This document shows, one piece after another, positions 5,295-64,000 of a stretch of DNA of 64,000 bases (position 1 is its first letter; each line of letters opens with the position of its first letter). The notes under the pieces are model-generated. The model worked only from the letters and a program-made list of their open reading frames with translations. It made no database searches and was not told the origin of the DNA. Where the stretch lies: positions 269,415 through 333,414 of the forward strand of contig CAYNGY010000001.1 of NCBI GenBank assembly GCA_964397195.1. Direction: 5' to 3'. The translations under genes were made by a program, and so were the position numbers. The DNA is from an uncultured Gammaproteobacteria bacterium (GTDB taxonomy: Bacteria; Patescibacteriota; Patescibacteriia; SBBC01; CAIJZX01).

Positions 5295-6572
5295 ATGTGG
5301 GATAAACTCGCCCTCGTCTGGAAAATCCGGGATGTCCGGAATAAGATTCTCGTAATCTTGGGCCTGTTGGTGATCTTCCGGTTGGCGGCGCATGTGCCGA
5401 TCCCGGGCGTTGATGTAGCGGCGCTCAAGAACTACTTCCAATCGAATCAATTATTCGGTTTATTGAATATGTTCTCGGCGGGCGGGTATGATACCTTCTC
5501 GATCGTCATGCTTGGCGTCGGACCGTACATTACCGCCTCGATTATTTTCCAGTTGCTCGGGATGATGATTCCGGCAATTGAAAAAATCCAGAAGGACGGC
5601 GAACGTGGGCAGGCCCGTATTAATCAGTGGACTCGATATTTGACGGTACCACTTGCCGCGGTCAACTCCTTCGGGACGATCGCCCTCATCCGCCGATCCG
5701 CACCGACCATTTTGCCGAACCTGAACACCTTTGAATTCGTTTCAGCGATTCTGACTATTACGGCCGGATCGATCTTCCTGATGTGGCTCGGGGAAATCAT
5801 CACCGAGAAAAAGGTTGGGAACGGGATCTCCCTGATGATTTTTGCTGGTATTGTCGCCGGGCTCCCGTCAAAACTGCAACAGACAGTGACCGTTGCCGAC
5901 TCGTCGAAAACGTTCGATTACCTTATCTTCGGCGCCTTAGCGGTCGTGACGATCATGGCGGTTGTCTATGTGACAGAAGCGGTTCGAAAAATTCCGGTCA
6001 CCTATGCGCGACGCGTCTCCGGCTTAAAAACCTATGGTGGGTCGGAAACATTCCTGCCGATGCGGGTCAACCAAGCCGGCGTGATTCCAATCATCTTCGC
6101 CGTCTCGCTGATCTTAACGCCGTCGTTGGTCGCCCAGTTTTTCTTAAGCTCAAAGATTGTCTGGCTTCAGCACGCCGCCTCAACGGTCAGCCGATTATTC
6201 CAACAGGGGACGGTGACCTATGACGTCGTGTATTTCCTCTTGGTGTTCATCTTCACCTACTTCTATACGGCGGTAGTCTTTCAGCCAACCCAGGTCGCCG
6301 AGAATTTGCAGAAACAGGGCGGCTTTATTCCGGGTATCCGACCGGGTCGACCAACCGCCGAGTACCTGTCGTATGTCACGAATCGCATTATTCTCGCCGG
6401 TGCCGGATTCTTAGGCGTCATTGCCCTGCTCCCAAACCTTGTCCAGCGCTTTAGCGGGATTACGACTCTGATCATCGGCGGTACCTCGCTCCTGATCGTT
6501 GTGAGTGTCGTCATCGAAACGGTAAAGCAAGTTGAAGCCCAACTCATTGTCCGTGACTACGAAGGCTTCTAA
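5295..6572 (+). CDS. secY: preprotein translocase subunit SecY
   Basis: 425 aa, 10-TM protein with SecY signatures (GIRPGRPTAEYL); canonical position after rplO. Confidence 0.95.
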   Translation: MWDKLALVWKIRDVRNKILVILGLLVIFRLAAHVPIPGVDVAALKNYFQSNQLFGLLNMFSAGGYDTFSIVMLGVGPYITASIIFQLLGMMIPAIEKIQKDGERGQARINQWTRYLTVPLAAVNSFGTIALIRRSAPTILPNLNTFEFVSAILTITAGSIFLMWLGEIITEKKVGNGISLMIFAGIVAGLPSKLQQTVTVADSSKTFDYLIFGALAVVTIMAVVYVTEAVRKIPVTYARRVSGLKTYGGSETFLPMRVNQAGVIPIIFAVSLILTPSLVAQFFLSSKIVWLQHAASTVSRLFQQGTVTYDVVYFLLVFIFTYFYTAVVFQPTQVAENLQKQGGFIPGIRPGRPTAEYLSYVTNRIILAGAGFLGVIALLPNLVQRFSGITTLIIGGTSLLIVVSVVIETVKQVEAQLIVRDYEGF

Positions 6573-7296: not shown

Positions 7297-8000
7297 CACA
7301 GAGTGGGAAGATTCTCGCCGATACCCTCCGGGCCGTCCGTGAACTTGTCGTCCCCGGTATCAGCACACGTGAACTCGATCATCATGCGACCACACTCGTC
7401 CGTAAAGCCGGAGGCGAACCAAGCTTCTTGGGTTTCCAGGGCTATCCCGCGAGCCTGTGCGTCTCGGTGAATGATGAGGTGGTCCATGGAATTCCCGGAC
7501 GTCGGACGATCAAGCCCGGCGATGTCGTCAGTCTCGATCTCGGCGTTGCCTACGAAGGTTGGTTGACGGACGCGGCGATCACCATGACGGTCGGCGCGGT
7601 ATCGGCCGATGTTGAAACGTTGCTCTCTGTGACCGAAGCGTCGTTGCGGGCCGCCGTCGCTGCGGCGGTAGTTGGGGGTCGCATTGGTGACATCGGCGCG
7701 GCCGTTGAGGGTGTCGTCCAGCCACACGGGTTCGGGATTGTCGATCAATTGTGTGGCCACGGTGTTGGTCGCGAGGTTCATGAACCGCCACAAATACCTA
7801 ACCGCGGTCGGGTTGGCACCGGTCCACGGATTGTGATCGGATCGGTACTAGCGATTGAACCGATGATTGTCCTGGGTCAACCGGGTGTGTATACCGCCGA
7901 TGACGGTTGGACGGTCTTGACGAATGATCATTCGGTGGCGGCTCATTTTGAGCATACCGTCGTGGTGCTCGAGGATGGTCCGCATATTATGACCCTATGA
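7257..8000 (+). CDS. map: type I methionine aminopeptidase
   Basis: 247 aa, pita-bread fold motifs; follows adk as in canonical operons. Confidence 0.92.
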   Translation: MAIISSDQDVAALTQSGKILADTLRAVRELVVPGISTRELDHHATTLVRKAGGEPSFLGFQGYPASLCVSVNDEVVHGIPGRRTIKPGDVVSLDLGVAYEGWLTDAAITMTVGAVSADVETLLSVTEASLRAAVAAAVVGGRIGDIGAAVEGVVQPHGFGIVDQLCGHGVGREVHEPPQIPNRGRVGTGPRIVIGSVLAIEPMIVLGQPGVYTADDGWTVLTNDHSVAAHFEHTVVVLEDGPHIMTL

Positions 8001-9468: not shown

Positions 9469-9962
9469 CGAGTCGTGTGGCGCTGATCGGTGGATTGGTA
9501 GTCAGTGTGTGCGTGCTTTGTGCTGTTTGGTACGGCGTCCCCCAAAAAACGTCGCCGGTTACTTCTGGCGACTACCGACGGATGGACGTGAGGATTGCCG
9601 AACATAATTTTCACGTTCGGGTACCACAAACAGCCGCCGCTTCCGCCCGGGGGCTCGGCGGCGTAACCGCGTTAGCGACGGATGAGGGGATGTATTGGGT
9701 GTACGCGTCACCGCAAATGGTGACATTCTGGATGCAGGGGATGCGCATTCCGCTCGACTTTATCTGGATTCGTGACGGACGAGTGATTGGAACGACCGAA
9801 CAGGTCCCGCCACCCGAAAAAGATAACGTTCTACCACTGCCACTCTTCAATCCTCCAGAAAAGATCGAACGCGTGCTTGAAGTAGCGGCCGGAACGGTCG
9901 CACGACTCCACATCCAGACGGGTACCGAAATAATTGAATCTCCGGCCACCGCTGCGCCTTGA
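9465..9962 (+). CDS. DUF192-family protein (membrane-anchored)
   Basis: 165 aa, N-terminal TM then a DUF192-like core (MRIPLDFIWI...). Confidence 0.7.
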   Translation: MTSRVALIGGLVVSVCVLCAVWYGVPQKTSPVTSGDYRRMDVRIAEHNFHVRVPQTAAASARGLGGVTALATDEGMYWVYASPQMVTFWMQGMRIPLDFIWIRDGRVIGTTEQVPPPEKDNVLPLPLFNPPEKIERVLEVAAGTVARLHIQTGTEIIESPATAAP

Positions 9963-10937: not shown

Positions 10938-12224
10938 ATGGCTGAAATAAAAAAAAGCCAGACATCGAACTCCAAGAAAACGCTCGTCCAAAATCCGCCA
11001 ACATCGAAGGCGGTTGTTTCGCGCCCAAAAAAAACGAGCGCCTCGTCAACTGTTGTTAGTCCTGCCTGGACCCAGAAAACGGCGCCCGTCATAAAATCGG
11101 CGCCGGCCAAGTCGACGCCATCCGTTCCACTGGCAAATCAAGTGTCAGTTTGGCCGTGGCTGTGGGTGGTCCTGCCGAGCCTTGGAGGATCACTATGGTG
11201 GTGGTGGACGCTAGCGAAAGTCTTGGCACCGCGGCAAGTCGCCTGGACGGCGCCGGAGTTGCTGTGGTATCTCTCGATGGCGCTGGTGGCGATGGCGGTA
11301 ATGGTTGGTCCGGCCATGCTCGGCGGTTTCGTCATTCGCGCTCGACGCTGGATCCCGTTGATCGGATTTCTAGTATCACTCCAAGCCGTCTGGTTCTTCG
11401 CCATCGACTGGGCGACGGTCGTCGCGATCGGATCGTTCACCATCGGCATCTGGCTCGCCAGCGAAGGTGTCCGACGCGAAACCTCGAGTCGTTTACGGCT
11501 TGATATACGGAGCTCATTGGCGCATGTCATGGCCTGGGTCATCCTCAGTCTTTCGATTGCGGTTTCGGTCCTCCACTTTTCAGCGGCCCAACAGTCGCTC
11601 GATCCGGTACAGGACGTGAATCGATTGATTACACGGGTGGTTTCCGTATCGGAGCGCCTCGTGGTGCAGTTTTATCCGGCCTATCAACCCGAAATGACGA
11701 TTGATGAGTTAATTGGTGAGCAAATCCCGACCACCGATGAACTCTTGCACTCGCTGACTTCAAAGACCAACTGGTCCGGCGATGAGCGGCAGCAGATCAT
11801 TGACCGCCTCTCTTCCCTTGGTATCTCAGGGTTACAGGTCCCGCCAGCCGGCGCCAAGATTGACGTCGTCCGAACTGCACTTGATACAGAATTGGCGGCG
11901 GCCCGTGGGGAGATGTTAAAAGAACTACGGAGCGGAGTTAGTCAACAGCTCGGGATTGAGCTTGATGGGTCGGAGACGGTTCATGCGGCCTTAACACGAT
12001 TGGCGGATAGTCGGATTCGGTCCCGTGGTTCGGCGTTTATAAAATTCTTACCGCCAATTCTCTCATTAAGTATTTTTCTGGCGCTCCGGTTATTAAGCCC
12101 GCTGCTCGAGCTGATCGTTGTCGCCGCCGGGTGGCTGTGGTATCGCATCCTCCGGTCGGCCCACATTCTGCAAATTCGCACCGAACCGGCCGTGGCCGAG
12201 CGGCTCCGGTGGGGGAGTCATTAG
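10938..12224 (+). CDS. hypothetical polytopic membrane protein
   Basis: 428 aa with several predicted TM helices and a Ser/Thr/Lys-rich N-terminus. Confidence 0.7.
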   Translation: MAEIKKSQTSNSKKTLVQNPPTSKAVVSRPKKTSASSTVVSPAWTQKTAPVIKSAPAKSTPSVPLANQVSVWPWLWVVLPSLGGSLWWWWTLAKVLAPRQVAWTAPELLWYLSMALVAMAVMVGPAMLGGFVIRARRWIPLIGFLVSLQAVWFFAIDWATVVAIGSFTIGIWLASEGVRRETSSRLRLDIRSSLAHVMAWVILSLSIAVSVLHFSAAQQSLDPVQDVNRLITRVVSVSERLVVQFYPAYQPEMTIDELIGEQIPTTDELLHSLTSKTNWSGDERQQIIDRLSSLGISGLQVPPAGAKIDVVRTALDTELAAARGEMLKELRSGVSQQLGIELDGSETVHAALTRLADSRIRSRGSAFIKFLPPILSLSIFLALRLLSPLLELIVVAAGWLWYRILRSAHILQIRTEPAVAERLRWGSH

Positions 12225-27290: not shown

Positions 27291-27364
27291 TCCGGGATCG
27301 TCTAATGGTAGGACTCCAGGTTCTGGACCTGGCTATCTTGGTTCGAATCCAGGTCCCGGAGCCA
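27291..27364 (+). tRNA. tRNA-Gln (anticodon CTG), CCA encoded
   Basis: Cloverleaf folded by hand: 7-bp acceptor TCCGGGA/TCCCGGA, D-arm GTCT/GGAC, anticodon loop TTCTGGA, T-arm CTTGG-TTCGAAT-CCAGG, 3' GCCA. Confidence 0.85.
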
Positions 27365-27503
27365 TGGCGAAAGCGGCCGAACAAGCGTCGGCCGTCTTCG
27401 CCATTGATGGCTTGGCCTGGATTCGAAGGGCAGAAGCGATCCCGAGTTAGCCGAGGGGAGCGATCGGCGAGGTGCCGGTGGCACGTCGCCGCTGCCCAGG
27501 ATC

Positions 27504-27524
27504 GAAATCCAGGTCCCGGAGCCA
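27504..27524 (+). repeat. direct repeat of the tRNA-Gln 3' end (T-arm/acceptor/CCA), att-like
   Basis: 18 nt identical (ATCCAGGTCCCGGAGCCA) plus similar flanking bases 160 bp downstream of the tRNA; does not fold into a second tRNA. Confidence 0.7.
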
Positions 27525-27525
27525 A

Positions 27526-27567
27526 GGGTCTGACGCCCACCAACACGGTGAGTCGCAGACCCTTTTT
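27526..27567 (+). terminator. rho-independent terminator
   Basis: GGGTCTG...CAGACCC stem followed by TTTTT. Confidence 0.65.
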
Positions 27568-52668: not shown

Positions 52669-52704
52669 AAAAAATTCGCGGTGGCCCGTGAGAGCCACCG
52701 CTGA
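52669..52704 (-). terminator. rho-independent terminator (minus strand), repeat copy 1
   Basis: GCGGTGGC-ccgtgaga-GCCACCGC hairpin followed by a T6 run on the minus strand; 36-nt identical copy at 53278. Confidence 0.75.
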
Positions 52705-52717
52705 AGGTGCGGGCGCA

Positions 52718-53164
52718 TCAGAGTCCGATGCCCTGATGAACCATGAGTTGGAAGGTCGTATTCTGGCCGAGTCGATGCACGCTGACCTTCAGGTACCAGT
52801 AGTCGTCGCTCTGCCACGACCACTTCCGATTGGGGTTGCTGATGCCCGTCATCCGCAGGGTGATCGGCACTCCATGGGTCAGCTGGCGACTGCTCGCCGC
52901 GAAGTCCACGTACTCGCCGCCCGTACCGGTGTTGGTGTGCTGGAAGTACGCCTGCCAGCCATCGAGGACGAGATCTTCGGCCGGCGAGATCAGGGTGATG
53001 ACGAGCGAGGTGTCGTGGAAGGCGGCCGTATAGGTGACGGTCGGCGCGTTCGGGTTGTCCGGGGGGGTCGGCGGCGCGGTCGGTCCGCTCTTTCCTTTCG
53101 AGCAGCCAGTGACGATACCGACCAAGATGATCAAGAGAGCGGATCGCGTTAAGAAACGGAGCAT
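52718..53164 (-). CDS. hypothetical lipoprotein (high-GC)
   Basis: Internal ATG with AAAGGAG SD gives MLRFLTRSALLIILVGIVTGCS (lipobox); the ORF extends to a GTG at 53203. Confidence 0.6.
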   Translation of the reverse strand: MLRFLTRSALLIILVGIVTGCSKGKSGPTAPPTPPDNPNAPTVTYTAAFHDTSLVITLISPAEDLVLDGWQAYFQHTNTGTGGEYVDFAASSRQLTHGVPITLRMTGISNPNRKWSWQSDDYWYLKVSVHRLGQNTTFQLMVHQGIGL

Positions 53165-53275: not shown

Positions 53276-53313
53276 TAAAAAAATTCGCGGTGGCCCGTGA
53301 GAGCCACCGCTGA
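53276..53313 (-). terminator. rho-independent terminator (minus strand), repeat copy 2
   Basis: Same hairpin and poly-T as 52669..52704. Confidence 0.75.
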
Positions 53314-53339
53314 TGGTGCGAGGTGTGCGCTGCCTAGCG

Positions 53340-53843
53340 CTAGTTGATGAACAGGCCGAGCGAGGCGAAGCTGGTTGATGCCAGCTGATGCTCGCGGAGG
53401 ATGCCCCGACACTGTTCCGCCAGGGCGTCGGCCGACAGGACGTGCATCAGGTCGCAGTTCCAGGCGCGGGGTAGCAGCCGTCGATCGGACGGCGTAGTCA
53501 GGTGCAACCCCAAGCCGAACCGATAGGTCGGAAAGTTCCGTCGCGCGTCGAGGAACCGGCCAATGGCATCCATCGGGATCTCGCTGACGCCGGCGGCGAA
53601 GACGAAGTCCGTCATCGTCGGGGCGAAGACGATCGCCAGGACCTGACAGTTGTTGTTGGCCATCTCGAACGAGACCATGGCGTGCTCACTCGACGCTTGG
53701 TAGGCGACGAGGTTGCTGTTCACCTCGGCCAACTGTGCCGGCGGGTAGTTCAGGCTGATGACCGGCATGGTGGCCACGCCATCGGTAGTTACACCGATGC
53801 TGATCGAGTGGGCCCGGAAAACGCGGGCGAGTTCATGACTCAA
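53340..53843 (-). CDS. hypothetical cytoplasmic protein
   Basis: 167-aa ORF ending just upstream of repeat terminator copy 2. Confidence 0.5.
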   Translation of the reverse strand: MSHELARVFRAHSISIGVTTDGVATMPVISLNYPPAQLAEVNSNLVAYQASSEHAMVSFEMANNNCQVLAIVFAPTMTDFVFAAGVSEIPMDAIGRFLDARRNFPTYRFGLGLHLTTPSDRRLLPRAWNCDLMHVLSADALAEQCRGILREHQLASTSFASLGLFIN

Positions 53844-53959
53844 AGGACACTCCTTCCGTGAAGGTGGCGGCGAGAAACGTGACTCACTGCGGGGGACACG
53901 CTACCAAAAAAATCCAGGTTTGTCAACCCCAGCCGGTTAGGAAGTGGTGGCGGGTGAAT

Positions 53960-54457
53960 TTACGGGGTGACCCCGACAGTCAATGTTTGTGTGTCGACTC
54001 GCTGGACGCGCCAACACCCGTCAACCTTTTTTGTCGTCCATGTCAGACGGGTAAACGTCTGGCCATTGACGGCGCGTTCGCCAATGTCACTCCACGGATG
54101 GTTCTGATCAAGTCCGGTCAATTCAAGATTCTGCGATCGATAGGTCGACATCGCCTGTTCAAGCGACTGACGATCCGCCGCGGAAATATCCCGTGTGTAA
54201 TATCGCCGGACCGTGGCGCTATCATGGCTGGTCATGGCCGCTAAGAACCCACCGAGGTAATCCCGCGGGTCGTCGTAGCTGTATTGAATCGTTTTTGGCT
54301 TTGGACAGGTCGCGCTCGGGTACTGCTGCCAGATAAACCATCCACCGATCACGACGACGATAACGGTCAGCGAAGCAGCATACCAAACTAGGGCCCGAGA
54401 CCGATGTGGGACGGGGCGTGGGCTGTTGAATGCGTTGTTCGGGGTGGAATCAGTCAT
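53960..54457 (-). CDS. hypothetical membrane-anchored protein
   Basis: 165 aa, N-terminal TM then a SnoaL/NTF2-like sized domain. Confidence 0.5.
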   Translation of the reverse strand: MTDSTPNNAFNSPRPVPHRSRALVWYAASLTVIVVVIGGWFIWQQYPSATCPKPKTIQYSYDDPRDYLGGFLAAMTSHDSATVRRYYTRDISAADRQSLEQAMSTYRSQNLELTGLDQNHPWSDIGERAVNGQTFTRLTWTTKKVDGCWRVQRVDTQTLTVGVTP

Positions 54458-54520
54458 ATTCGAAATCTACCATATTCTATATGGCGCGACAAACCGTAGA
54501 ATCCGCGGTAGACTATCGTC

Positions 54521-55510
54521 ATGACTGTCTCCACCCTCCATCAACTCGCCACCGATATCGTCTCGCGAGCCAAAGTCCTCAAAGACAATCACACCGATCA
54601 AAGCGGCGCGCCCGTGAATTACGCCTGTATTTTTTCGCAGAGCGACACTGAATATCATGAACTCTTGGTTGCGGCGCAGGCGATAGGTACCGTCATCAAA
54701 GACACGCCCACCGGGCCGCTATTTCAGATCGCACCCCTCGCCACGAGTGCGGGGAAACTCCGGCTCCTAAAAATCCGCAAACCCGACGCAACTCGCCCCG
54801 AACGCGGTGATGCTGATTTTACCGTTGATGACTACCCGGGCTTCAAAGCCAGATGTCTGTCCAAACCGGGATTCAGTCTGATAGAACGTCCGGGGATGGA
54901 AATGATTGAATTGGTTGAGTCGGGGACGAACGTGCGCGCCTACTTTTCCTATCCGCCACTCGACCAAGAGCTTGGGCTGACGAGCGATCAGGTTATTCCC
55001 GAGATCGTGCCGAGTGCGAAACCGTCTCCCGGGCCTGCTATGCTCGCCCGCGTGTTTCGATATTGGCCGCTCAGCTCATTTCACACCAACCCGATCTATC
55101 GACTGCCGATGCTGGTCATCATGAAACTTCTCGGGCTGCTGGCACTCTTCCAGTTGGCGCTGATCTGTGGACTGCCGTGGGGGCGTGCCGTCTGGGGCGG
55201 GCAGGATGACGTTTTACCAACCTCATTACGAATTGGCAGTGCCATTTCGATCCTCATCTACATCCTGATGTTCAGCGTCGCCCTCGATCGCACCAGCGAA
55301 AACTCGCGCCGTGTTTATCGTCGCCGGACAGCGGTTCTGACCTGGGCGATCACCGTCTACCTCTATCTGGGTGTCGTCATCAACCTCATCTCGCCAAGTC
55401 TGTGGGAGAAATATTTGATGGCGCCGATCGCTTTCGTCCTCGCCCTAAGCTTCACTCGCTTGGTCCGTCGGCCGAAGATGACGGAGGCCATGGTCCACGC
55501 CAATTCGTAA
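54521..55510 (+). CDS. hypothetical two-domain protein: soluble N-domain plus 4-TM domain paralogous to 49780..50199
   Basis: 329 aa; C-terminal 140 aa align with the 49780 protein. Confidence 0.6.
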   Translation: MTVSTLHQLATDIVSRAKVLKDNHTDQSGAPVNYACIFSQSDTEYHELLVAAQAIGTVIKDTPTGPLFQIAPLATSAGKLRLLKIRKPDATRPERGDADFTVDDYPGFKARCLSKPGFSLIERPGMEMIELVESGTNVRAYFSYPPLDQELGLTSDQVIPEIVPSAKPSPGPAMLARVFRYWPLSSFHTNPIYRLPMLVIMKLLGLLALFQLALICGLPWGRAVWGGQDDVLPTSLRIGSAISILIYILMFSVALDRTSENSRRVYRRRTAVLTWAITVYLYLGVVINLISPSLWEKYLMAPIAFVLALSFTRLVRRPKMTEAMVHANS

Positions 55511-55540
55511 ACAAAAAACCCCGACGGTCGCGGTGGGCGA

Positions 55541-56698
55541 CTATCGGGGGAGAAGGGCGCGAAGGGCGGCGGCGTTGGGTGGTTCTTGGCGTTCGCCAAG
55601 GGTGATCAGGATGCCGTGTCGGTAGTAGGGCATCGACGGAACGTTCAGGCGGCAGTGCTGATGGATGACACACTGGAGACAGCTGCGGGCGAAGGCGCGG
55701 TGGCGTCGTGCATCCCAGGCCATCCGCAATGGGCCATGTCCGTTGACCGACGGTGTGGCCGTGAAGAGCGGCAAATCGTTGACGTCGGGCTGGACCCAGA
55801 TGATCTTACGTTCGATCTTCGTATTGCGGGCGCGGTACCGACCGTACTGAGTGAACCAGTTGCCCGGATTGTGCGGACACATATCGCGGGCAAAGAGCCA
55901 GATCGCGTTCGCGAACTCGATCGGATCGGTCTCGGTCAGGCGGGTGTACCGCACCATCAACCGGCGCAGAACCCGCATGATCTCCGGCGTGTAAAACGTG
56001 CGGTGCCGTTTCCGCTCGATATACATCTCGTGGCCGAGATGACCATCCGTCCAGCGAATGATCTTCGTGGCGACCGCGATGCGCAGCCAGTGGATGTCGA
56101 TCGGCGGCGGAAAATGGTACCGCCTCAACAGGCCGGCGTCCATGTAGAAATAGACGAGCATCGACACCATCTTGTAGCCGAACCCGAGGAAGCCGAGTTC
56201 GACGCCATGGACCCGGCGCGTCAGCAAAAGACGACAGGCGCCGTGATAGGTGTTGAGCTGGTCGATAAATCGCTGCATATCACCGCCGGTGAAGGCGAGT
56301 AAGCGACGCGAGTTTTCGATCCAGTGCTCGGCTACCTGAGCGCTGTTGAATCCGAGCTTGTAGGACTCGAGCAGGGCAGTCAAGGTCGCGACCTCGAGTT
56401 CCGACGCGGCGTAACTCGGGTTGAAGACCTCCGGATGATCGCGGTGCAGATCGGTCAGGGCCACCATCGCGGTCGTCGAGTTGATGCCGCCCTTCATCTG
56501 GCTACAGGCGTAGAACAGGAGCAGGGCGAGCTCAGTCGGACGGGCCGTAATGTCGGGCGGCATATTTTCGGCCACGTGTGGCACGACGAGGTCGGGGCGC
56601 GAGAAGGGATACTGCTGACGGCGGGCGGCGTCGAGGACCAGGCCAAACACCGCCCGGGCGCGACGCATACTCGTCAGGTACGGATGGGTGGTGGCCAT
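55541..56698 (-). CDS. hypothetical protein (high-GC) with C-terminal Cys cluster
   Basis: 385 aa from ATG at 56698 (ORF extends to GTG 56710); minus-strand terminator hairpin overlaps its stop. Confidence 0.5.
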   Translation of the reverse strand: MATTHPYLTSMRRARAVFGLVLDAARRQQYPFSRPDLVVPHVAENMPPDITARPTELALLLFYACSQMKGGINSTTAMVALTDLHRDHPEVFNPSYAASELEVATLTALLESYKLGFNSAQVAEHWIENSRRLLAFTGGDMQRFIDQLNTYHGACRLLLTRRVHGVELGFLGFGYKMVSMLVYFYMDAGLLRRYHFPPPIDIHWLRIAVATKIIRWTDGHLGHEMYIERKRHRTFYTPEIMRVLRRLMVRYTRLTETDPIEFANAIWLFARDMCPHNPGNWFTQYGRYRARNTKIERKIIWVQPDVNDLPLFTATPSVNGHGPLRMAWDARRHRAFARSCLQCVIHQHCRLNVPSMPYYRHGILITLGERQEPPNAAALRALLPR

Positions 56699-56881
56699 GG
56701 TCGGCCTCACTGGGTGGGAAGGACAGTGAATCAGGACGATCCCAATTCGCCCGCAGTATGGGCGTTTTCCGGGGGTGCGTCAAGCGCCTTCCGGGCGAAT
56801 AGTAGGCCTAGCCACGATTGACAAATCGTCGATTCCGTGTAAGGATGGGGCGGTCTCTGACGGTGATTCGAGATATGACCC

Positions 56882-57292
56882 ATGCACACCGGAGGTGCTC
56901 TTTTGGTACTGTTCGTCGAACGCTACATCAATCGCGGGGCGCTGGCGCCCGAGACCATCACGGTCGTAGAGTTGACCGGGGACGGTCTGCGGGCCATCGT
57001 CGCGACGGCAATGTCGCACCACGGGGTCAACGTCGACCCGACGATGATCAACCTCAACACGTTCTACTTGGACACGGTGCCGCCTCGTAGTAATCGGGAG
57101 GAGCATGTCGACTACATGAGCCACGACATCGTCATCGTCGTCCGTGACGATGCCCCTCGCTGGGTCGGCATGGGCTGTCATTCGACCGCGGAACAGATCG
57201 CTGTCAAATATGGCGGAATCTTGCCGCCGGCGCTCAAGGTTGGCGTTGCGATCCAGCTCTGCACCATGGTGGATGTCACGGTCACGACGTAG
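56882..57292 (+). CDS. hypothetical protein
   Basis: 136 aa, high GC3 coding pattern, followed 26 bp later by the next gene. Confidence 0.45.
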   Translation: MHTGGALLVLFVERYINRGALAPETITVVELTGDGLRAIVATAMSHHGVNVDPTMINLNTFYLDTVPPRSNREEHVDYMSHDIVIVVRDDAPRWVGMGCHSTAEQIAVKYGGILPPALKVGVAIQLCTMVDVTVTT

Positions 57293-57318
57293 AAGGTCCA
57301 CAATTCCGCGGAGGCCCA

Positions 57319-57693
57319 ATGCCGAAGATTCTGCTGTACCGCAAGCCGACGTTCATCACGGATGACATGGTCGGCGCGCTGACGCTGATACTTCGCGAGG
57401 AAGCGGCGCCGCTGCTCTCGAGTCCGAGCGCTGGTGAGATGATCACGCCCATGCAGATCGAAGTCTGGGTGCACGATGGGCACCCGCTCGACGACAACAC
57501 CTGTGATCTGTCGATCGAGGTCCAGGCCGGCGATGTGTCTGGGCGGGGCAAGACCGGGCCGAAGATCATCAAGACGCTGGCCGAAGCGGTCGGCCACATC
57601 GTGCCCCACCTGGTCGGCAACCCCCTGCGGTCGATCGACACCTGGATCGAGCTCGACCTCGGCCAGAAGTACGGCCGGAAGATCTGGCCCTGA
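57319..57693 (+). CDS. hypothetical protein
   Basis: 124 aa, GGAGG SD, terminator downstream. Confidence 0.55.
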   Translation: MPKILLYRKPTFITDDMVGALTLILREEAAPLLSSPSAGEMITPMQIEVWVHDGHPLDDNTCDLSIEVQAGDVSGRGKTGPKIIKTLAEAVGHIVPHLVGNPLRSIDTWIELDLGQKYGRKIWP

Positions 57694-57709
57694 ACGCACC
57701 ATCCCGAAG

Positions 57710-57766
57710 CCCGTCGCGAGGAGATTCTGAGCTTGTCTCAGACCCTCGCGACGGGCGATTTTGCTT
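57710..57766 (+). terminator. rho-independent terminator
   Basis: CCCGTCGCGAGG...CCTCGCGACGGG long stem followed by CGATTTTGCTTT. Confidence 0.75.
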
Positions 57767-57775
57767 TGAACGTGG

Positions 57776-57804
57776 AATTGACAACGGCCGTTTCACGGGA
57801 TACA
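57776..57804 (+). promoter_or_regulatory. sigma70-type promoter
   Basis: TTGACA, 17-bp spacer, TACAGT. Confidence 0.55.
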
Positions 57805-57856
57805 GTGTGGCCGGATTTGTTCGCACCCTCAAGTATCCAAAAACGAGGAGGCACCC

Positions 57857-58438
57857 GTGTTCCATGCGCTGCAGTGGCTTGGAGGGGGCTGCTACCTCCT
57901 CAATAAGATCTTTCTCGCCTGGACCGAGGACGCCGCGCAACGTGGTCATGATCGGTGGGCGAACATATGGCGAATTACCGCCTGGGTGGTCTATCTGATC
58001 GGCCTCCCGCCGTGGGTCATCATCTTCGTCCATCGGCAAGATTGGATCGCCGCTTCCGTGGAAGCCGGCGGGGCCCCGGCCATGGTCCTGGGACTAGTCA
58101 TCGCCATCAATGGCTCAACCGCGAAGTCACCGGTGTGGCTCGACCGACTGGCGTTCCTCTGCATCCCCATCGGCATCGGGTATAGTCTCTACGATTTCGG
58201 TGGCCTACGAACATTCAGTCAGGTTCTCGAGCTCGGTCTCGCACTCGGGTTCCTCACCGGAACGTACCAACTCGCGAAACAAGATCCACGAGGATACCTC
58301 TGGTACGTCCTGATGCATATCAGCTGCGGGTGGCTGATGGCGAACCAGGGTTTCTACTGGCTCGCTGCTCAGCAAGCCGTCTCGCTCCTCTTCATCATCC
58401 GGGCCTATGTGACAGCTATCCGGCGTCCGTCGGTCTGA
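57857..58438 (+). CDS. hypothetical polytopic membrane protein
   Basis: 193 aa, GTG start with GAGGAGG SD, about 6 TM helices. Confidence 0.6.
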   Translation: MFHALQWLGGGCYLLNKIFLAWTEDAAQRGHDRWANIWRITAWVVYLIGLPPWVIIFVHRQDWIAASVEAGGAPAMVLGLVIAINGSTAKSPVWLDRLAFLCIPIGIGYSLYDFGGLRTFSQVLELGLALGFLTGTYQLAKQDPRGYLWYVLMHISCGWLMANQGFYWLAAQQAVSLLFIIRAYVTAIRRPSV

Positions 58439-58444
58439 TGGCGC

Positions 58445-58480
58445 CCCGCTTCGTTCACTCGAAGCGGGCGATTTTGTTTT
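58445..58480 (+). terminator. rho-independent terminator
   Basis: CCCGCTTCG-ttcact-CGAAGCGGG followed by CGATTTTGTTTT. Confidence 0.8.
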
Positions 58481-58632
58481 CGGCGAGCCGATTCTCCACG
58501 CGGTTCTCGGCCTGGCCCGAACCTTGGTCGAACAATAATGAATATATACCCCAGAGATCGATCTTGACGTCAGTCTATTTGACGGCTAATGTGGCCGCAC
58601 GCACCTCTCCATCCTGTACCGGAGGACACACC

Positions 58633-59151
58633 ATGATTCGGACGTGTATCGTTCATCAGTTTTCGCCGCAGCTTGACGTACTGCTCACGGCGTATGCACA
58701 TGTCTTTACCCGGGCATTTCCGGGCCATCCCTTCGAGGACTCGCTTGCCCAGGCGCGTCACGAGATCGCTCGCGGCGATCGCTTCATCTTCGCTCTCGAC
58801 GAGGATGGAAACGTTCTCGGGTTCGTCACGTGGGAGCGGCATGGCTCGCCGTCAAATCGCCTCGCCGAACTCGAACACATCGGTGTCGACCTCACGAATC
58901 CTGCCGCTCGCGGCATCGGTCGTGATCTGATCGCCGCCCTCGAAGCGGATGTCCACGAGATCTACCGACTACATCGCTTCCCGGGCGCGCGAAAGATCTT
59001 CCTCCTGACGCACGCTGAGAACAACCGCGCGCAGAACCTCTACCGCAAGTGTGGCTTCGTCCACACGGCGACGCTCCCGGAGTTCTGGCATCCGCGCAGT
59101 GACCATCGCAGCGGGGACGAGTACTACTTCGAGAAGTCCTACCCGGACTAG
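58633..59151 (+). CDS. GNAT-family N-acetyltransferase
   Basis: 172 aa from ATG with GGAGG SD; acetyl-CoA binding-like motif (GIGRDLI) and a GNAT-typical C-terminus. Confidence 0.7.
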   Translation: MIRTCIVHQFSPQLDVLLTAYAHVFTRAFPGHPFEDSLAQARHEIARGDRFIFALDEDGNVLGFVTWERHGSPSNRLAELEHIGVDLTNPAARGIGRDLIAALEADVHEIYRLHRFPGARKIFLLTHAENNRAQNLYRKCGFVHTATLPEFWHPRSDHRSGDEYYFEKSYPD

Positions 59152-59190
59152 CCTGGCACATCGCGCTCCGCCTTCGCGGATAATCCGCGG

Positions 59191-59231
59191 CCCGTCATCT
59201 CCCTCGTGAGATGGCGGGTGATTTTTTTGTT
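59191..59231 (+). terminator. rho-independent terminator
   Basis: CCCGTCATCTC...GAGATGGCGGG followed by TGATTTTTTTGTT. Confidence 0.8.
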
Positions 59232-59322
59232 CGGTCGGTTCCCCACGCGGTTCTCGGCCTGGCTGGAACGATAAAGGGTGATATATCCTTCGACCCGGGT
59301 GGAGAGGGGGAATACCATACGC

Positions 59323-59352
59323 TTGACAGCTCCTTGAGTACTCAAGTATTAT
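59323..59352 (+). promoter_or_regulatory. promoter with embedded 12-bp palindromic operator (TTGAGTACTCAA) for the MarR gene
   Basis: TTGACA, 18-bp spacer, TATTAT; perfect palindrome at 59334-59345 in the spacer; -10 ends 8 nt before the ATG (near-leaderless). Confidence 0.6.
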
Positions 59353-59360
59353 ACAACTAT

Positions 59361-59795
59361 ATGACCCACCTCAGCCCATCAATCAATTTCTTTATCCAGC
59401 TCGCCAAGACGCAAAACCGATTGACGAATCGCTTTGACCGCGCCCTCGGCGGCCTGAGCCTAACCGAGCTCCTCGTGCTCCTGAGTCTCGAGCAGGCCCC
59501 GGATCATCGACTCCGCCGTGTCGAACTAGCTGCCCAAATTGGTGTCAGTGCCTCGGGCGTGACCCGGATTCTCTTGCCCATGGCCAAGGTCCATCTCGTC
59601 AAAGACGGTACGGTGGCCGATGACGCTCGGGTGCGAACGGTCATGGCGACGGCCGCCGGTCGCGATAAACTGCATGACGAATTGAAGCGTCTCCAATTCC
59701 TTGTTGATGAATTACTGCCGGATGGCACCCGCAAAGACCTCGGCGCGACGACGGAATTCCTTGAGGCCCTCGGCGGGCGGGCGATGATGCGGTAG
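59361..59795 (+). CDS. MarR-family transcriptional regulator
   Basis: 144 aa, winged-HTH pattern (LSLTELLVLLSLEQAPDHRLRRVELAAQIGVSASGVTRIL). Confidence 0.75.
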   Translation: MTHLSPSINFFIQLAKTQNRLTNRFDRALGGLSLTELLVLLSLEQAPDHRLRRVELAAQIGVSASGVTRILLPMAKVHLVKDGTVADDARVRTVMATAAGRDKLHDELKRLQFLVDELLPDGTRKDLGATTEFLEALGGRAMMR

Positions 59796-59867
59796 GTTGT
59801 CGCGCGAGTAGTGCGAGCCGGGTGGCGCGGGATTTGACATCCTGTTCGCGCGCTTTAGACTTCGACT

Positions 59868-60149
59868 ATGACATCTTGGTGGCGGCGGACAACATCTATG
59901 CCGAATGACGTGACTCGGGTGGAATTCGATCTGGCGATGCGCCGTATTGATGAGCGTTTTGATACGATGGAAAGACGTGTCGACTCCCTCGACACTGTCT
60001 TCGTCACCAAGGATGAGTTCAACACGAAGTTGGATGAGGTGATGGTTATCTTGCGTCGCCTCGATCAGGAACGCATCTTCACTCTCGTCTGGATCCGCCG
60101 GATTGATGCCGATGTGGCGCTGTTGAAAGAGCGGGTTGCGCGCCGCTAA
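59868..60149 (+). CDS. hypothetical coiled-coil protein
   Basis: 93-aa ORF with an Arg/Glu-rich heptad-like pattern. Confidence 0.4.
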   Translation: MTSWWRRTTSMPNDVTRVEFDLAMRRIDERFDTMERRVDSLDTVFVTKDEFNTKLDEVMVILRRLDQERIFTLVWIRRIDADVALLKERVARR

Positions 60150-60247
60150 CGCCCGAGGGGTGGGAGATGTATCAACAGGTCGGGTGATTGCTCGCGCCGC
60201 GTGGTTTTGCTACCCTCACCACAACCTATTTATTACACCTAGATCAT

Positions 60248-60673
60248 ATGATTGATTTCTCAATTTCGTGGATGCCGTTCCTGACGGTGGCGGTCGCTAA
60301 TTTCTTCCTGAGCTGGGTATATTATTCCCCGGTCTCCCCATTCTTCCGAATGTGGCAACGCGGACTCGGAATGGATCCGAATAATCGGACGATGACCGAC
60401 GACCAAAAGAAAGCTATGCCGCGCTTGATGATGGGCGCAGTAGTCGGGACGCTCCTGCTGTCGTACGGGATGCAGGTGCTCGTTCGCAGTCTCGACCTGA
60501 CGACGTTTTCTGAGGGGATGCTGATTGGCTTCGTCGCCTGGTTCACCTTTGCGGTGACCCACAGCTTGAACACCCAGTTTGAGGGCCGCAAGCCGGTCAT
60601 CCTGGTCATCAATGATCTTTGGTTCTTGATCACCTATCTCGGATTCGGCGGTCTGCTCGCCGTTTGGCGCTAG
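60248..60673 (+). CDS. DUF1761-like small membrane protein
   Basis: 141 aa, 4 TM helices, resembles the DUF1761 family. Confidence 0.55.
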   Translation: MIDFSISWMPFLTVAVANFFLSWVYYSPVSPFFRMWQRGLGMDPNNRTMTDDQKKAMPRLMMGAVVGTLLLSYGMQVLVRSLDLTTFSEGMLIGFVAWFTFAVTHSLNTQFEGRKPVILVINDLWFLITYLGFGGLLAVWR

Positions 60674-60692
60674 GTACACATACCGCCAAACA

Positions 60693-60718
60693 AAAAAACC
60701 GCCGCGGGGCGGTTTTTT
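60693..60718. terminator. bidirectional rho-independent terminator (copy 1 of an identical 26-mer)
   Basis: AAAAAACCGCCGCGGGGCGGTTTTTT; identical copy at 63201. Confidence 0.8.
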
Positions 60719-60725
60719 CTTCAGG

Positions 60726-61265
60726 TTATTTGTAAATTTTATCAAGCGTTGCTTCGTGTGGTTTGCCGATCGATTGGATCGTGTACCGTGGAAAAAGTGT
60801 CCGGAGTTTGCTGCGACGGAAAAGCTGATCAACCGTACCTTCACGTTCTTCATATGATAAACGTGACAGTGATCGGTAGAGAATAAGGTGGAGGAGTTCA
60901 TGCGCAATCGTTTCTACCACCCGTGGTACCGGATCGGTTTTTATAATGCGGAGAAACAAGCGGTTCGGGCGACGAAACTGGCCCTCTGGTCCAAATATTG
61001 AAACGTGGCTGATGTATACTGGTCGGACGTCTGCAGTCGAAAATCGTCGTACAATGGAAAAATAGGCACGCTCTTTTTTGCGCCATGCACGCTCTACCGT
61101 ACGAATGTCAATCGGGGACGGCGTGCCTAGAGTGAATAATGCAGACTTTGGGAGAGGAAGATTCACGGGCATGCGTTGACGACGAAACCACGTCCGGAGT
61201 TCTTCGAGGTCGCGCTGATGCGCGCGCTCGCGACGGATATCGTGGGAAAATGTGACGGTAGGCAT
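60726..61265 (-). CDS. hypothetical HExxH-motif protein (putative metallopeptidase)
   Basis: 179 aa, IAHELLHL motif; lies immediately downstream of the rSAM gene. Confidence 0.55.
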   Translation of the reverse strand: MPTVTFSHDIRRERAHQRDLEELRTWFRRQRMPVNLPLPKSALFTLGTPSPIDIRTVERAWRKKERAYFSIVRRFSTADVRPVYISHVSIFGPEGQFRRPNRLFLRIIKTDPVPRVVETIAHELLHLILYRSLSRLSYEEREGTVDQLFRRSKLRTLFPRYTIQSIGKPHEATLDKIYK

Positions 61266-61290
61266 AAGGACAGTATACCGCCAGTTGCGT

Positions 61291-61331
61291 ACAAAGAAAA
61301 CAAAGGATCCGGGTCGGCCTCCACCGACCCG
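61291..61331 (-). terminator. rho-independent terminator (minus strand)
   Basis: Perfect 9-bp stem CCGGGTCGG/CCGACCCGG with a T-rich tract on the minus strand. Confidence 0.7.
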
Positions 61332-61347
61332 GATTTAAGGTGTTGCG

Positions 61348-62718
61348 TTACTTGAGCAACCCGCAGGCATGCATCGTGACGATGAGTTCTCGGGCTTCCT
61401 GCTCCGCCGTGACGTTTCGGGCGAACGCGTCACGGATCTGGGCGACGACGTCGCCGATCGTTCGGGTGCCGTCGAGTAGCTGGAGCGTCTTGGCGCCGAG
61501 GGACGAGAAGGCGAGAATGCCGAAGCCCTTGAAGTAGCCAATCGGGCCGTTGATGTCGGACCGGATTCGGTACTGGCGGGTCACCGACAGCCGCGTATCG
61601 TCTGAGATGATCGCCCTCACGCCCATTTCCTTGGGCGTGCGGAGGTGTTGCCACCATTCGCGGGCTCGATACTGCATCATCCCACCGAGTCGACGCGACA
61701 TCGTCCAGACGTTTTCTTCTTCGGGCGTCGGGATGAACTCGTCCGGTGCGTAGAGATGTGCGCCCGGTCGTGAGGCAGAACATCCAGCCCCACAGAAGTG
61801 TGGGCACACGCGGCACTGCCATGGCAGGTGTTCCAGAGTGCGCATGGCCGCCAGTCGTTCCGTCCAGATCGTGGTCAGCGGAGTCGTCAGGATGTTGCCG
61901 AGCGTTCCGTTGAGGATGGAACAGGACTTGACGTCGCCGGTGAAGGAGATGTGGCCGAACCCGGTACCTTGCCAGCAGCCGGTGACCAGATCCCAATCCG
62001 CGACTGGGATCGTGCAGAGAGGGAAGGCGTCACCCATGACGGCGTTGATTCCGGTCTCGGCTTTGACTCGCCGCATCTCCGTGAAGAGCCAGCGGTAGTC
62101 CTTGAGGGACAACCGATCTTCGTGCCAGGTGGCGACCGCCTCGCCGGATGGACAGAGCCTCCCGACGCCGATTTCGTCAACCGGCACGTTGTCCCGACGG
62201 AGATCCCTCGCCATGGCACTGAGCGTCCGGTAGTTGGCTTGGGTTGGGGTGAACAGTAGGTTTATGGCGATGCCCGCGTCATGGCAATACCGGAGCCCAC
62301 GAATCGTACGTTGGTACGCTCCCGGGACGCCGACCATTGCATCGTGCACCGGCTCGGGTCCATGTAGCGACATTGCGCCGCTGGTGATTCCAGAGGCAGC
62401 GAGCGTCTTCGCCATCTCCCCCGTAATCCTGGTCCCGTTTGAGACGAAACCCATGAAGAAGTCGAGCTGTGCGGCGTACGCGACGAGCTCGCGCCAGCCG
62501 TTGAGTGTCGTGAATTCTCCGCCGAACCACCGAATCTCGAAGACCTCGGCATCAGCGAGAGCATCGATCACTCTGCGCACGCGCTCGACAGGCGGATTCA
62601 CATGGCGATGCGTCGCCGAGTTACTGAAACACGGGCCACACTTCAAATTACAGACGAGTGTCGCCTCGAGGTTCACCGAAATCGGCGATTTGAGCGCGGT
62701 GAGGACGTGGGGGTCCAC
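61348..62718 (-). CDS. radical SAM/SPASM-domain peptide-modifying enzyme with C-terminal PqqD-like (RRE) domain
   Basis: CNLKCGPC (CxxxCxxC), SPASM cysteine clusters (CWQGTGFGH...C, CRVCPHFCGAGC), C-terminal about 90 aa with a PqqD-like pattern (LLDGTRTIGDVVAQI...); GTG start at 62718 preceded by AAGGAGA. Confidence 0.8.
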   Translation of the reverse strand: MDPHVLTALKSPISVNLEATLVCNLKCGPCFSNSATHRHVNPPVERVRRVIDALADAEVFEIRWFGGEFTTLNGWRELVAYAAQLDFFMGFVSNGTRITGEMAKTLAASGITSGAMSLHGPEPVHDAMVGVPGAYQRTIRGLRYCHDAGIAINLLFTPTQANYRTLSAMARDLRRDNVPVDEIGVGRLCPSGEAVATWHEDRLSLKDYRWLFTEMRRVKAETGINAVMGDAFPLCTIPVADWDLVTGCWQGTGFGHISFTGDVKSCSILNGTLGNILTTPLTTIWTERLAAMRTLEHLPWQCRVCPHFCGAGCSASRPGAHLYAPDEFIPTPEEENVWTMSRRLGGMMQYRAREWWQHLRTPKEMGVRAIISDDTRLSVTRQYRIRSDINGPIGYFKGFGILAFSSLGAKTLQLLDGTRTIGDVVAQIRDAFARNVTAEQEARELIVTMHACGLLK

Positions 62719-62779
62719 GGCACTCTCCTTGTCGTTAGGTTGGGCGCGCTGGCGATGAAGCCAGCGCGCCCAACGGTGA

Positions 62780-62956
62780 TCACTTGCAGCAGCGGCAGGT
62801 GCACTCGCCGGCGCAGCGCATCGTGGCTTCACGGCGTGCATGCTGAGCGAGCGACCCGCGATTGCTCTGGACGACCGAGAACATGCCGACGGACGGGTTC
62901 GGGCTACCCCGACTCATCCCGACGAGCGTCATCAGGCCACGAAGAACGCGAGTCAT
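62780..62956 (-). CDS. 58-aa Cys-rich peptide, candidate RiPP precursor
   Basis: MTRVLRGLMTLVGMSRGSPNPSVGMFSVVQSNRGSLAQHARREATMRCAGECTCRCCK; SD GAGAGGAGGAAGGC 7 nt upstream; 59 nt upstream of the rSAM gene on the same strand. Confidence 0.55.
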   Translation of the reverse strand: MTRVLRGLMTLVGMSRGSPNPSVGMFSVVQSNRGSLAQHARREATMRCAGECTCRCCK

Positions 62957-63001
62957 GCCTTCCTCCTCTCTTGTCCCGAAACCGAAGGTAGAAAACGAGC
63001 A

Positions 63002-63089
63002 ATGTCGTATTCACGACATTGAGTTAGGCAAAATGCCCTCGCTTCGTCTTCGACGTCGAGAACTTGTAAAGGTTCTAGGCTGAGCCTAG
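63002..63089 (-). promoter_or_regulatory. upstream region of the peptide gene with two perfect palindromes
   Basis: ATGTCGT-attc-ACGACAT (63002-63019) and CTAGGCT-g-AGCCTAG (63075-63089); TTGACA on the minus strand at 63105-63110. Confidence 0.4.
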
Positions 63090-63200
63090 CAGAAAATTGA
63101 GATTTGTCAACCGCTAGATCTGCCGTCTGAATTACAGAGCGCCTTACCAAGGCCTTGCTTTTCAACTTGAACGGAAACACCGTGCGAAAACAGTTGTCAC

Positions 63201-63226
63201 AAAAAACCGCCGCGGGGCGGTTTTTT
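63201..63226. terminator. bidirectional rho-independent terminator (copy 2 of the identical 26-mer)
   Basis: Identical to 60693..60718. Confidence 0.8.
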
Positions 63227-63238
63227 GGTCTGATGGCG

Positions 63239-63634
63239 TTAGCCGCGCATTTCCTGCATCAGGCTAGCGCGGTTGCCTTCGGTGTCGGTAAACGAGACGT
63301 ACATGCCGACCCCCGGAATGGCGACCGGTTCGCCGAGGATTTTTCCGCCGGCGTCGGTGATGCGGTGCATCGCCGCTTGGATATCATCGACCGCAATCAC
63401 CACTGAAGGAATCGGGGACGAAGCGGCTTCTTTCAAGAAAAACCCGCCGTTGATATTGCCCGGTGTTTTGACCATTCGGTTTTCGTCGGTCTCAGTCGTA
63501 CCGGCGGTGATGTACCCGCCCATCTCCGGGCCGGTGGCATTCATCGTCCACCCGAAGGCCTGTTGATAGAAGGCGGAGACGCGATCGGCGTTCTCGTAGG
63601 GCATTTCGAAATGGACGACGGGGTTTGGGTTCAT
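63239..63634 (-). CDS. VOC-family (glyoxalase/bleomycin-resistance/dioxygenase) protein
   Basis: 131 aa, betaalphabetabetabeta-module pattern typical of the VOC superfamily. Confidence 0.7.
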   Translation of the reverse strand: MNPNPVVHFEMPYENADRVSAFYQQAFGWTMNATGPEMGGYITAGTTETDENRMVKTPGNINGGFFLKEAASSPIPSVVIAVDDIQAAMHRITDAGGKILGEPVAIPGVGMYVSFTDTEGNRASLMQEMRG

Positions 63635-63749
63635 AGGGGTGATAAAGAGTGAATATTTCTGGCTCTAGTGTAGCAAGGGTGGGTTCGGTCGTGAAGTCGG
63701 TCGGCCGTTGCTTCATTCGAGTCGGACCGCATGATATACTGGGGTCACT

Positions 63750-64000
63750 ATGGCTGAACGTCGACGACCGCGCGCCCGCGAGCGCCAACCTGAACCGGAA
63801 CGGAGCGCGATGGACGTGATGCGCGATTTCCATCGTTCGACCATCGGAAAACTGGTCGAATTTGCGTCGGCCGCGACCGCCGCTGGAGCCATCGGGTATG
63901 GTGGGATGGAGTACGCCCGCGGTCAGCAAGCCCATGCCGAAGCCTGGAAACAGTTCTCGCACGGCGATCACCGCACCGAACAGATTAGCCATGAAACGCT
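63750..64000 (+). CDS. hypothetical protein, 3'-partial (runs off window)
   Basis: ORF starting MAERRRPRAREPQPE... remains open to the window end. Confidence 0.3.
   Translation, partial: MAERRRPRARERQPEPERSAMDVMRDFHRSTIGKLVEFASAATAAGAIGYGGMEYARGQQAHAEAWKQFSHGDHRTEQISHET

Follow-up and report, generated by a model that had tools for sequence, protein, structure and literature searches.

Two identical intrinsic terminators bracket a RiPP-type module in a candidate phyla radiation genome and may record a local duplication at its placement

Why should the same terminator stand on both sides of a small biosynthetic gene block, and how could it have come to be there twice? The question is raised by a 64,000-nt stretch of DNA (hereafter, the window) from a bacterium of the candidate phyla radiation (CPR; GenBank contig CAYNGY010000001.1), in which the 26-mer AAAAAACCGCCGCGGGGCGGTTTTTT (hereafter, T) occurs at 60693–60718 (copy L) and again at 63201–63226 (copy R). 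An earlier note, made by reading the sequence alone, had described these copies as bidirectional terminators around a block resembling the loci for ribosomally synthesized and post-translationally modified peptides (RiPPs), and had suggested cassette-like insulation or acquisition of the block as a unit. Here, we examine how rare T is, what the copies are predicted to do, what they enclose, and which origin of the pair best suits the evidence.

Exact searching of the window recovered T on the (+) strand at the two sites that the earlier note had named. When up to 3 mismatches were allowed, the only additional matches were the same two sites on the (−) strand, because T is palindromic except for its 4-nt loop. 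Since this loop is oriented alike in both copies, they are direct repeats, and alignment of their surroundings revealed that identity ends sharply at the palindrome edges, with no extended similarity in the flanks. An independent Logan assembly (contig L001, run SRR12487045) is 100% identical to window positions 53284–64000 and runs on for 7.4 kb; the arrangement is, therefore, not peculiar to one assembler. The window and this extension together amount to 71.4 kb of sequence inspected for this organism, and they contain no third copy of T, even at 3 mismatches.

T is also rare outside this organism. No match was found in the GTDB species-representative genomes (185,579 genomes, one per species; 596 Gb), and the 241 million records of the Joint Genome Institute metagenomes yielded a single unrelated locus, present in two samples, where T lies within a convergent pair formed by a methionine aminopeptidase (map) gene and a Crp-like gene. 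The absence from species genomes and the single metagenome locus indicate that independent convergence on T is very rare. Within the window, ~20 other strong terminator-like hairpins detected by a terminator scan all have different sequences, and only two identical terminator pairs are present, each made up of consecutive same-strand terminators around one unit. Thus, the T pair is real and not due to chance, and T is not a generic terminator. The earlier note had named a generic terminator, used dozens of times genome-wide with no link to accessory units, as the outcome that would overturn its proposal, and neither the species genomes nor the other terminators of the window, within the data scanned, point that way. 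That two independent terminators simply arrived at the same sequence is extremely improbable: T is highly constrained (A6, T6, and a GC-only 5-bp stem, with ~9 positions free) and one unrelated organism does carry it, but the expected number of matches is 0.00 (100 shuffles), none of the 185,579 genomes has one, the other terminators differ among themselves, and a second pair of like layout, 43 nt long, lies 8 kb away.

A different reading would make T one member of a genome-wide, dispersed palindromic family that acts as terminators, either like repetitive extragenic palindromic (REP) sequences and bacterial interspersed mosaic elements (BIMEs) or like uptake sequences, with two members merely lying close together. 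The inspected portion of the genome is 71 kb only, and the Saccharibacteria contig L006 provides an example of one short palindrome following several consecutive unrelated genes (at 5223, 6296, and 7886). We nevertheless consider this reading unlikely, given that the 71.4 kb contain T only twice even when 3 mismatches are tolerated, that the other strong terminators are all unique, that no Y1/RAYT-type gene is recorded nearby among the L001 genes, and that GTDB species genomes gave no match. Moreover, none of the 12-mers of T recurs elsewhere in the 71.4 kb, save the generic GGGCGGTTTTTT at one other terminator. Inverted pairs of DNA uptake sequences (DUS) serve as terminators in Neisseria (PMC3898611), which resembles the present case in that one short sequence is reused as a terminator. 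Uptake sequences, in contrast, number thousands per genome, and no sub-word of T is over-represented in the 71.4 kb; given the non-recurring 12-mers, we rejected a DUS- or USS (uptake signal sequence)-type terminator. As a separate observation, the L006 palindrome, CTGTGCAAGTCAGACTTGCACAG (5223–5251, 6296–6324, and 7886–7914; 97% and 79% identity), which follows three consecutive unrelated genes in this metagenome-assembled genome (MAG), has no clear T-tract.

What the two copies are predicted to do is straightforward. T is composed of A6, a 5-bp GC stem, a 4-nt loop, and T6, and folding of copies L and R on both strands gave a stem of 11–12 bp, in which A:U pairs add to 5 GC pairs, closed by a 4-nt loop and followed by U6–7. 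The folds have energies of −16 to −24 kcal/mol (z-scores of −2.9 to −4.4), with copy L at about −16 to −19 kcal/mol (z about −3). Both copies are intergenic, at 7 nt (p179, the third gene of the module), 12 nt (a VOC/glyoxalase gene), and 19 nt (a DUF1761 gene) from stop codons. As far as sequence can tell, both are bidirectional intrinsic (Rho-independent) terminators, so the label given by the earlier note is a fair one. Bidirectionality is required only at copy L, which lies where two convergent genes end, with 52 nt between their stop codons; copy R requires one direction. Copy R would stop VOC transcription 12 nt past the stop codon, before the module promoter 90 nt farther on, and copy L would end the transcripts of the module as well as those of the convergent DUF1761 gene, so that together they would leave a three-gene module transcriptionally insulated. 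We, therefore, regard T as an ordinary terminator that is predicted to insulate a compact RiPP module. Like known bidirectional intrinsic terminators between convergent genes, T has a GC stem-loop with an A-tract and a T-tract, and copy L lies in the convergent setting; the difference is that here two identical copies, for which termination is a prediction, lie 2.5 kb apart and one of them needs to act in one direction only.

The enclosed unit is, by its sequence, a radical S-adenosylmethionine (SAM)/SPASM RiPP-type module of an uncurated family, which bears out the earlier description of a single functional, RiPP-like block. It comprises a promoter and the genes for a precursor peptide, a maturase, and the protein p179, all three on the (−) strand (Table 1). 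The precursor has the leader motif G.FSVV.G.RGS and the core KCAG(E/Q)CTCRCCK, both of which are kept in other CPR lineages. The maturase matched the Pfam families Radical_SAM (4e-18, 66.5 bits) and SPASM (24.3 bits; cutoff 21.5), and alignment of its homologues showed an invariant CxxxCxxC motif (C23/C27/C30). Its C-terminal match to PqqD (21.6 bits) is below the cutoff of 23.4, and PqqD is precomputed for several of its homologues. No equivalog cutoff was reached in NCBIfam (best score 100 bits vs 500 required). The best annotated plasmid matches of the maturase were the mycofactocin maturase MftC, at ~29–32% identity, and known plasmids and phages carry no close homologue of it. For p179, profile matches were sub-threshold only (SprT-like, M78, and DUF2268), a PDB profile search returned no match, and a single-sequence structure model (predicted local distance difference test score of 40) was too poor for use. 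From its invariant motifs, p179 is a putative small zinc metallopeptidase, possibly a leader protease.

This module resembles other radical SAM/SPASM RiPP clusters, i.e., those with mycofactocin (MftC), sactipeptide, or ranthipeptide maturases, in pairing a short Cys-rich precursor with a radical SAM/SPASM enzyme that has a putative PqqD-like domain. It differs in the C-terminal position of that domain and in the absence of a curated equivalog match, and the core KCAGECTCRCCK together with the HExxH partner defines a CPR-restricted trio. Our literature search found no description of such a precursor/maturase/HExxH trio.

Table 1. Features of the two terminator pairs, the enclosed units, and the adjacent genes (window coordinates)
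Feature	Coordinates	Strand	Context and evidence
Second-pair terminator, copy 1	52669–52711	−	After lipoprotein-like gene; scan, repeat search, alignment, fold
Lipoprotein-like gene, 148 aa, lipobox IVTGC	52718–53164	−	Single gene enclosed by the second pair; no family match
Second-pair terminator, copy 2	53278–53320	−	After unrelated 167-aa gene at 53340–53843; scan, repeat search, alignment, fold
DUF1761 membrane protein, left neighbor	60248–60673	+	Pfam (1.5e-15); convergent with p179
Terminator T, copy L	60693–60718		19 nt after DUF1761 stop (+), 7 nt after p179 stop (−); exact match, fold, terminator scan
p179, third module gene, 179 aa	60726–61265	−	Invariant HExxH and E.E..VD (alignment)
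Strong hairpin between maturase and p179 genes	61307–61334	−	Scan; near-identical in L004 (2769–2792) despite 76% surrounding DNA identity
Radical SAM/SPASM maturase, 456 aa, GTG start, putative C-terminal PqqD-like domain	61348–62718	−	Pfam
Precursor peptide, 58 aa, ending MRCAGECTCRCCK	62780–62956	−	Good ribosome-binding site; homologues in six CPR loci
Terminator-like hairpin with T-rich tail, 5′ untranslated region of precursor gene	63000–63021	−	Scan, L004 alignment
Putative module promoter, TTGACA-16 nt-TAGGCT	63083–63110	−	Alignment with L004, whose homology starts here; activity inferred
Terminator T, copy R	63201–63226		12 nt after VOC/glyoxalase stop (−), 90 nt upstream of module −35 box; exact match, fold, terminator scan
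VOC/glyoxalase-family protein, right neighbor	63239–63634	−	Pfam; co-directional with module; ~70% identity homologues in many phyla

Does T travel with this module? We compared the locus with relatives sharing 82% (L004 and L005) or 52–58% (L006–L010) maturase identity. The maturase homologues come from CPR bacteria (Liptonbacteria, Wolfebacteria, Buchananbacteria, and Saccharibacteria MAGs). The order of the trio is the same in six other CPR loci, with a p179 homologue after the maturase in six of six relatives and a core that is almost invariant across all seven loci (that of the window and these six), while the flanking genes differ in each genome. This conservation of the trio in differing neighborhoods agrees with gain, loss, or movement of the module as a whole. 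DNA identity between the window and L004, the closest relative, is 76% over 60736–62975 (BLAST), and the homology runs from the −35 box (TTGACA, 63110–63105) to the p179 stop codon and then ceases. The promoter has its counterpart in L004 at 991–1018 (TTGACA-16-TAGAGT, by scan). On this evidence, the conserved unit spans about 60726–63110, with the T copies 7 nt and 90 nt outside its ends. In L004, T is absent, and another hairpin, facing the opposite way, follows the p179 homologue. Because the hairpin internal to the module is kept in L004 and T is not, T belongs to the locus rather than to the module. The hairpin upstream of the precursor gene is, in L004, replaced by one of other sequence at the same position; it may be an attenuator.

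Although T is absent from L004, that locus has a repeat of its own. A direct repeat of ~195 nt with multiple hairpins (97% identity; 654–845 and 4698–4888), unrelated to T, encloses the RiPP module together with a methyltransferase gene and a gene for a 156-aa protein. L005, a strain variant of L004, matches it at 99.96% identity across the module but diverges abruptly ~170 nt to the left of the 195-nt repeat, a sign of ongoing rearrangement at such joints. Within the window, the earlier note had pointed to a further repeated terminator at 52669 and 53278, and this pair is also real: its copies span 43 nt with one mismatch (98%), are exact over the first 36 nt, and have sharp edges. The order here is the 167-aa gene, terminator, promoter, lipoprotein-like gene, and the same terminator. 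The two genes are not paralogues. In addition, the Logan contig L001 breaks inside this repeat, as would be expected where a repeat exceeds the assembler's word size. Taken together, the L004 repeat, the L005 breakpoint, and the second pair indicate that units in such regions are reshuffled at intergenic joints, often marked by duplicated intergenic DNA.

Two details of L004 and L005 are recorded here for completeness. The second copy of the L004 repeat is the 3′ region of a gene for a 1073-aa Big_7 protein and has no Rfam match. L005 1–702 and L004 1–483 are fully diverged, so that L005 represents structural variation between strains at an intergenic joint. We rejected L005 as a circular-junction form of the L004 unit, as the two share only a 75-nt motif at 76% identity.

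For the T pair itself, we favor, with about even confidence, a local duplication of T tied to the event that placed the module between the DUF1761 and VOC genes. Under this scenario, copies L and R would descend from one bidirectional Rho-independent terminator that belonged to the host locus and not to the traveling module. Taking out the module and one repeat would leave the DUF1761 stop codon, 19 nt, T, 12 nt, and the VOC stop codon (...GCGCTAGGTACACATACCGCCAAACA-T-GGTCTGATGGCGTTAGCC...), i.e., a standard convergent gene pair with one common bidirectional terminator. The reciprocal product would be the p179 stop codon, 7 nt, T, 90 nt, and the promoter, i.e., a module with its own terminator. 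Both reconstructed products resemble normal gene arrangements, as expected for a joint formed at T. Several processes could have produced it and are not distinguished by our data: (i) a break staggered about the palindrome and then filled in, (ii) a single crossover with a circular copy bearing T, or (iii) template switching. Tandem gene duplication was rejected as the source of repeated terminators, since the genes that precede them are unrelated and not paralogues. A literature search found no description of terminator duplication at insertion joints.

Alternatively, the terminator alone may have been duplicated, through ectopic gene conversion or because a short palindrome was copied locally, supplying a neighboring unit with a terminator independently of the manner and time of arrival of the module. 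T does lie outside the conserved module, the module and DUF1761 are neighbors in both the window and L004 (suggesting an old location), and a like pattern surrounds a single unrelated gene at 52.7 kb. We consider this alternative improbable, if slightly less so than a dispersed family, because no known process copies 26 bp by themselves to a defined position at a distance of 2.5 kb, and because both pairs enclose exactly one transcription unit, for which an insertion joint is the simpler explanation.

The copies could also be attL/attR-like sites at which a site-specific or hairpin-recognizing recombinase, encoded elsewhere in the genome, moves a cassette, since, as at the attL/attR ends of genomic islands, identical direct repeats (26 of 26 positions) surround an accessory, self-contained unit whose neighbors differ between genomes. 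Analogous flanking repeats occur in L004, and the neighboring genes (GNAT, VOC, and small genes of unknown function) resemble typical cassette cargo. The differences are substantial: neither a recombinase nor an integrase is seen within ~10 kb, a tRNA target is lacking, the unit measures just 2.5 kb, its flanking repeats are terminator palindromes, and the 195-nt L004 repeats are unrelated to them in sequence and length, leaving no common site. Nor does T have the core and length of an integron attC site; the module comes with a promoter of its own, genes of the region lie in both orientations, and the maturase lacks a close homologue on known plasmids or phages. Overall, attL/attR-like sites are a less likely explanation still.

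Two more specific forms of mobility were tried and rejected. Integron attC sites are about 57–141 bp long with R/L boxes and a GTTRRRY core, and their cassettes are co-oriented and promoterless and accompanied by intI/attI; T is 26 nt long with no GTTRRRY, and an own promoter, mixed orientations, and no integrase were seen here. The target-site duplications of transposons are usually 2–15 bp and accompany terminal inverted repeats and a transposase; here, the repeat is 26 nt, with neither inverted ends inside the repeats nor a transposase seen. The closest analogy for the whole unit is provided by the minimal mobile elements of Neisseria, in which homologous recombination exchanges whole-gene cassettes flanked by conserved genes (PMC3898611): these, too, are small cassettes in an intergenic slot of a variable region, with no mobility genes (PMC3898611). 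The flanks of minimal mobile elements, however, are conserved across strains and no repeats are needed, whereas here only DUF1761 is common to one relative.

Several observations weigh against a duplication of T at the placement of the module. (i) Among the Pfam families recorded for the L001 genes (window 53284–64000 plus the 7.4 kb beyond), which cover ~10 kb to each side, none is that of an integrase, a transposase, or another recombinase. (ii) No relative with an empty site was found, and the insertion is a reconstruction; relatives of DUF1761 at 75–79% identity have wholly different neighbors and terminators, and VOC homologues (~70% identity across many phyla) were uninformative for this search. 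(iii) A repeat of 26 bp exceeds the usual target duplications of transposases and is short for efficient homologous recombination. (iv) The second-pair repeat runs 9–10 nt farther out than its hairpin at either end, and a single mechanism confined to the palindrome, therefore, does not explain both pairs. (v) The copy number of T is a count over 71.4 kb of the genome. (vi) DUF1761 adjoins the module in the window and, with its relative orientation unchanged, is 6 kb away from it in L004, so the module may be old in this neighborhood, with only its flanks reshuffled. This proximity of DUF1761 at both loci is the main reason why our confidence in a duplication tied to module placement is held at an even level.

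Base composition, which the earlier note had proposed to compare inside and outside the block, does not decide the matter. The GC content at third codon positions is 0.76–0.78 in the precursor and maturase genes, 0.47 in p179, and 0.60–0.69 in core genes. The order precursor > maturase > host > p179 recurs in all six other hosts (29–50% GC) and thus in every host (29–56% GC); this mosaic, therefore, characterizes the module itself and does not point to a recent arrival, and we rejected GC and codon composition as a test of foreign origin. Of the two ideas put forward in the earlier note, cassette-like insulation and acquisition as a unit, a bracketed trio conserved across CPR bacteria is borne out, but acquisition is inferred only, with no empty site found.

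The wider setting of the module is chromosomal (SecY, CysRS, DnaX, and pyruvate kinase genes in the window), and from ~49 kb onward the window holds small genes that each have separate signals and for the most part no known function. In the window, Rfam matched nothing but the tRNA, and it gave two chance-level matches in L001/L004. A number of other repeats and genes were observed in this setting. A 34-nt direct repeat (88%) with GGTTC...GAACC lies at 58489–58522 and 59236–59269, just downstream of two different terminators and in the promoter regions of a GNAT acetyltransferase gene and a MarR-family gene; we regard it as probably a shared operator, which may be that of MarR, and not as an insertion scar. 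A second copy of the last ~22 nt of a tRNA-Gln gene (27291–27364), comprising its T-arm and acceptor end, occurs 160 nt downstream at 27500–27527, followed by a hairpin and T-run; this repeat could be a remnant of integration at the tRNA or a tRNA fragment. Beyond the end of the window (~1.3–3.0 kb; L001 4413–6185), two genes past VOC, is a gene for a second radical SAM protein, which is larger (590 aa), and next to it comes a gene for a DUF87/HerA-like ATPase; the neighborhood may hold further peptide-modification genes.

Repeated elements were also seen in other contigs. An element made up of a C-rich stretch, then an AAA...GGGTTT palindrome, and then a −35-like box lies upstream of several operons, including that of the RiPP module (L010 4216, 7118, 9556, 12017, and 13354; L004 963–989 and 4585–4611; L005 642–686; L001 3640–3677), and in L010 two copies enclose the module; this element may be a shared promoter/operator in these CPR genomes. 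In L015, a 48-nt repeat (98%; 9885–9932 and 11046–11093) surrounds a gene for a 255-aa protein beside a 593-aa reverse-transcriptase gene, and could be the template/variable repeat pair of a diversity-generating retroelement.

A broader and quite speculative idea is that, in variable regions of CPR genomes, intergenic palindromes act as joints for the insertion, loss, or exchange of transcription units, with the palindrome duplicated each time. Such palindromes would be terminators and, in some genomes, promoter-proximal elements, making up a cassette system with no dedicated neighboring recombinase, which we likewise give little credence at present. If true, this idea would account for both terminator pairs, the 195-nt repeat of L004, the L005 breakpoint, the L006 hairpins, and the promoter-type element of L010.

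As regulation, the terminators described here are ordinary. The T copies delimit, base by base, a minimal three-gene RiPP module, which is convenient for heterologous expression, and this module, with its conserved Cys-rich core, is widespread in CPR bacteria and uncharacterized as far as our searches show. If the duplication does mark an insertion joint, identical terminators on consecutive units would provide a simple signature of recently gained or shuffled transcription units, which would be useful where mobile-element genes are unrecognizable, as is often the case in CPR genomes.

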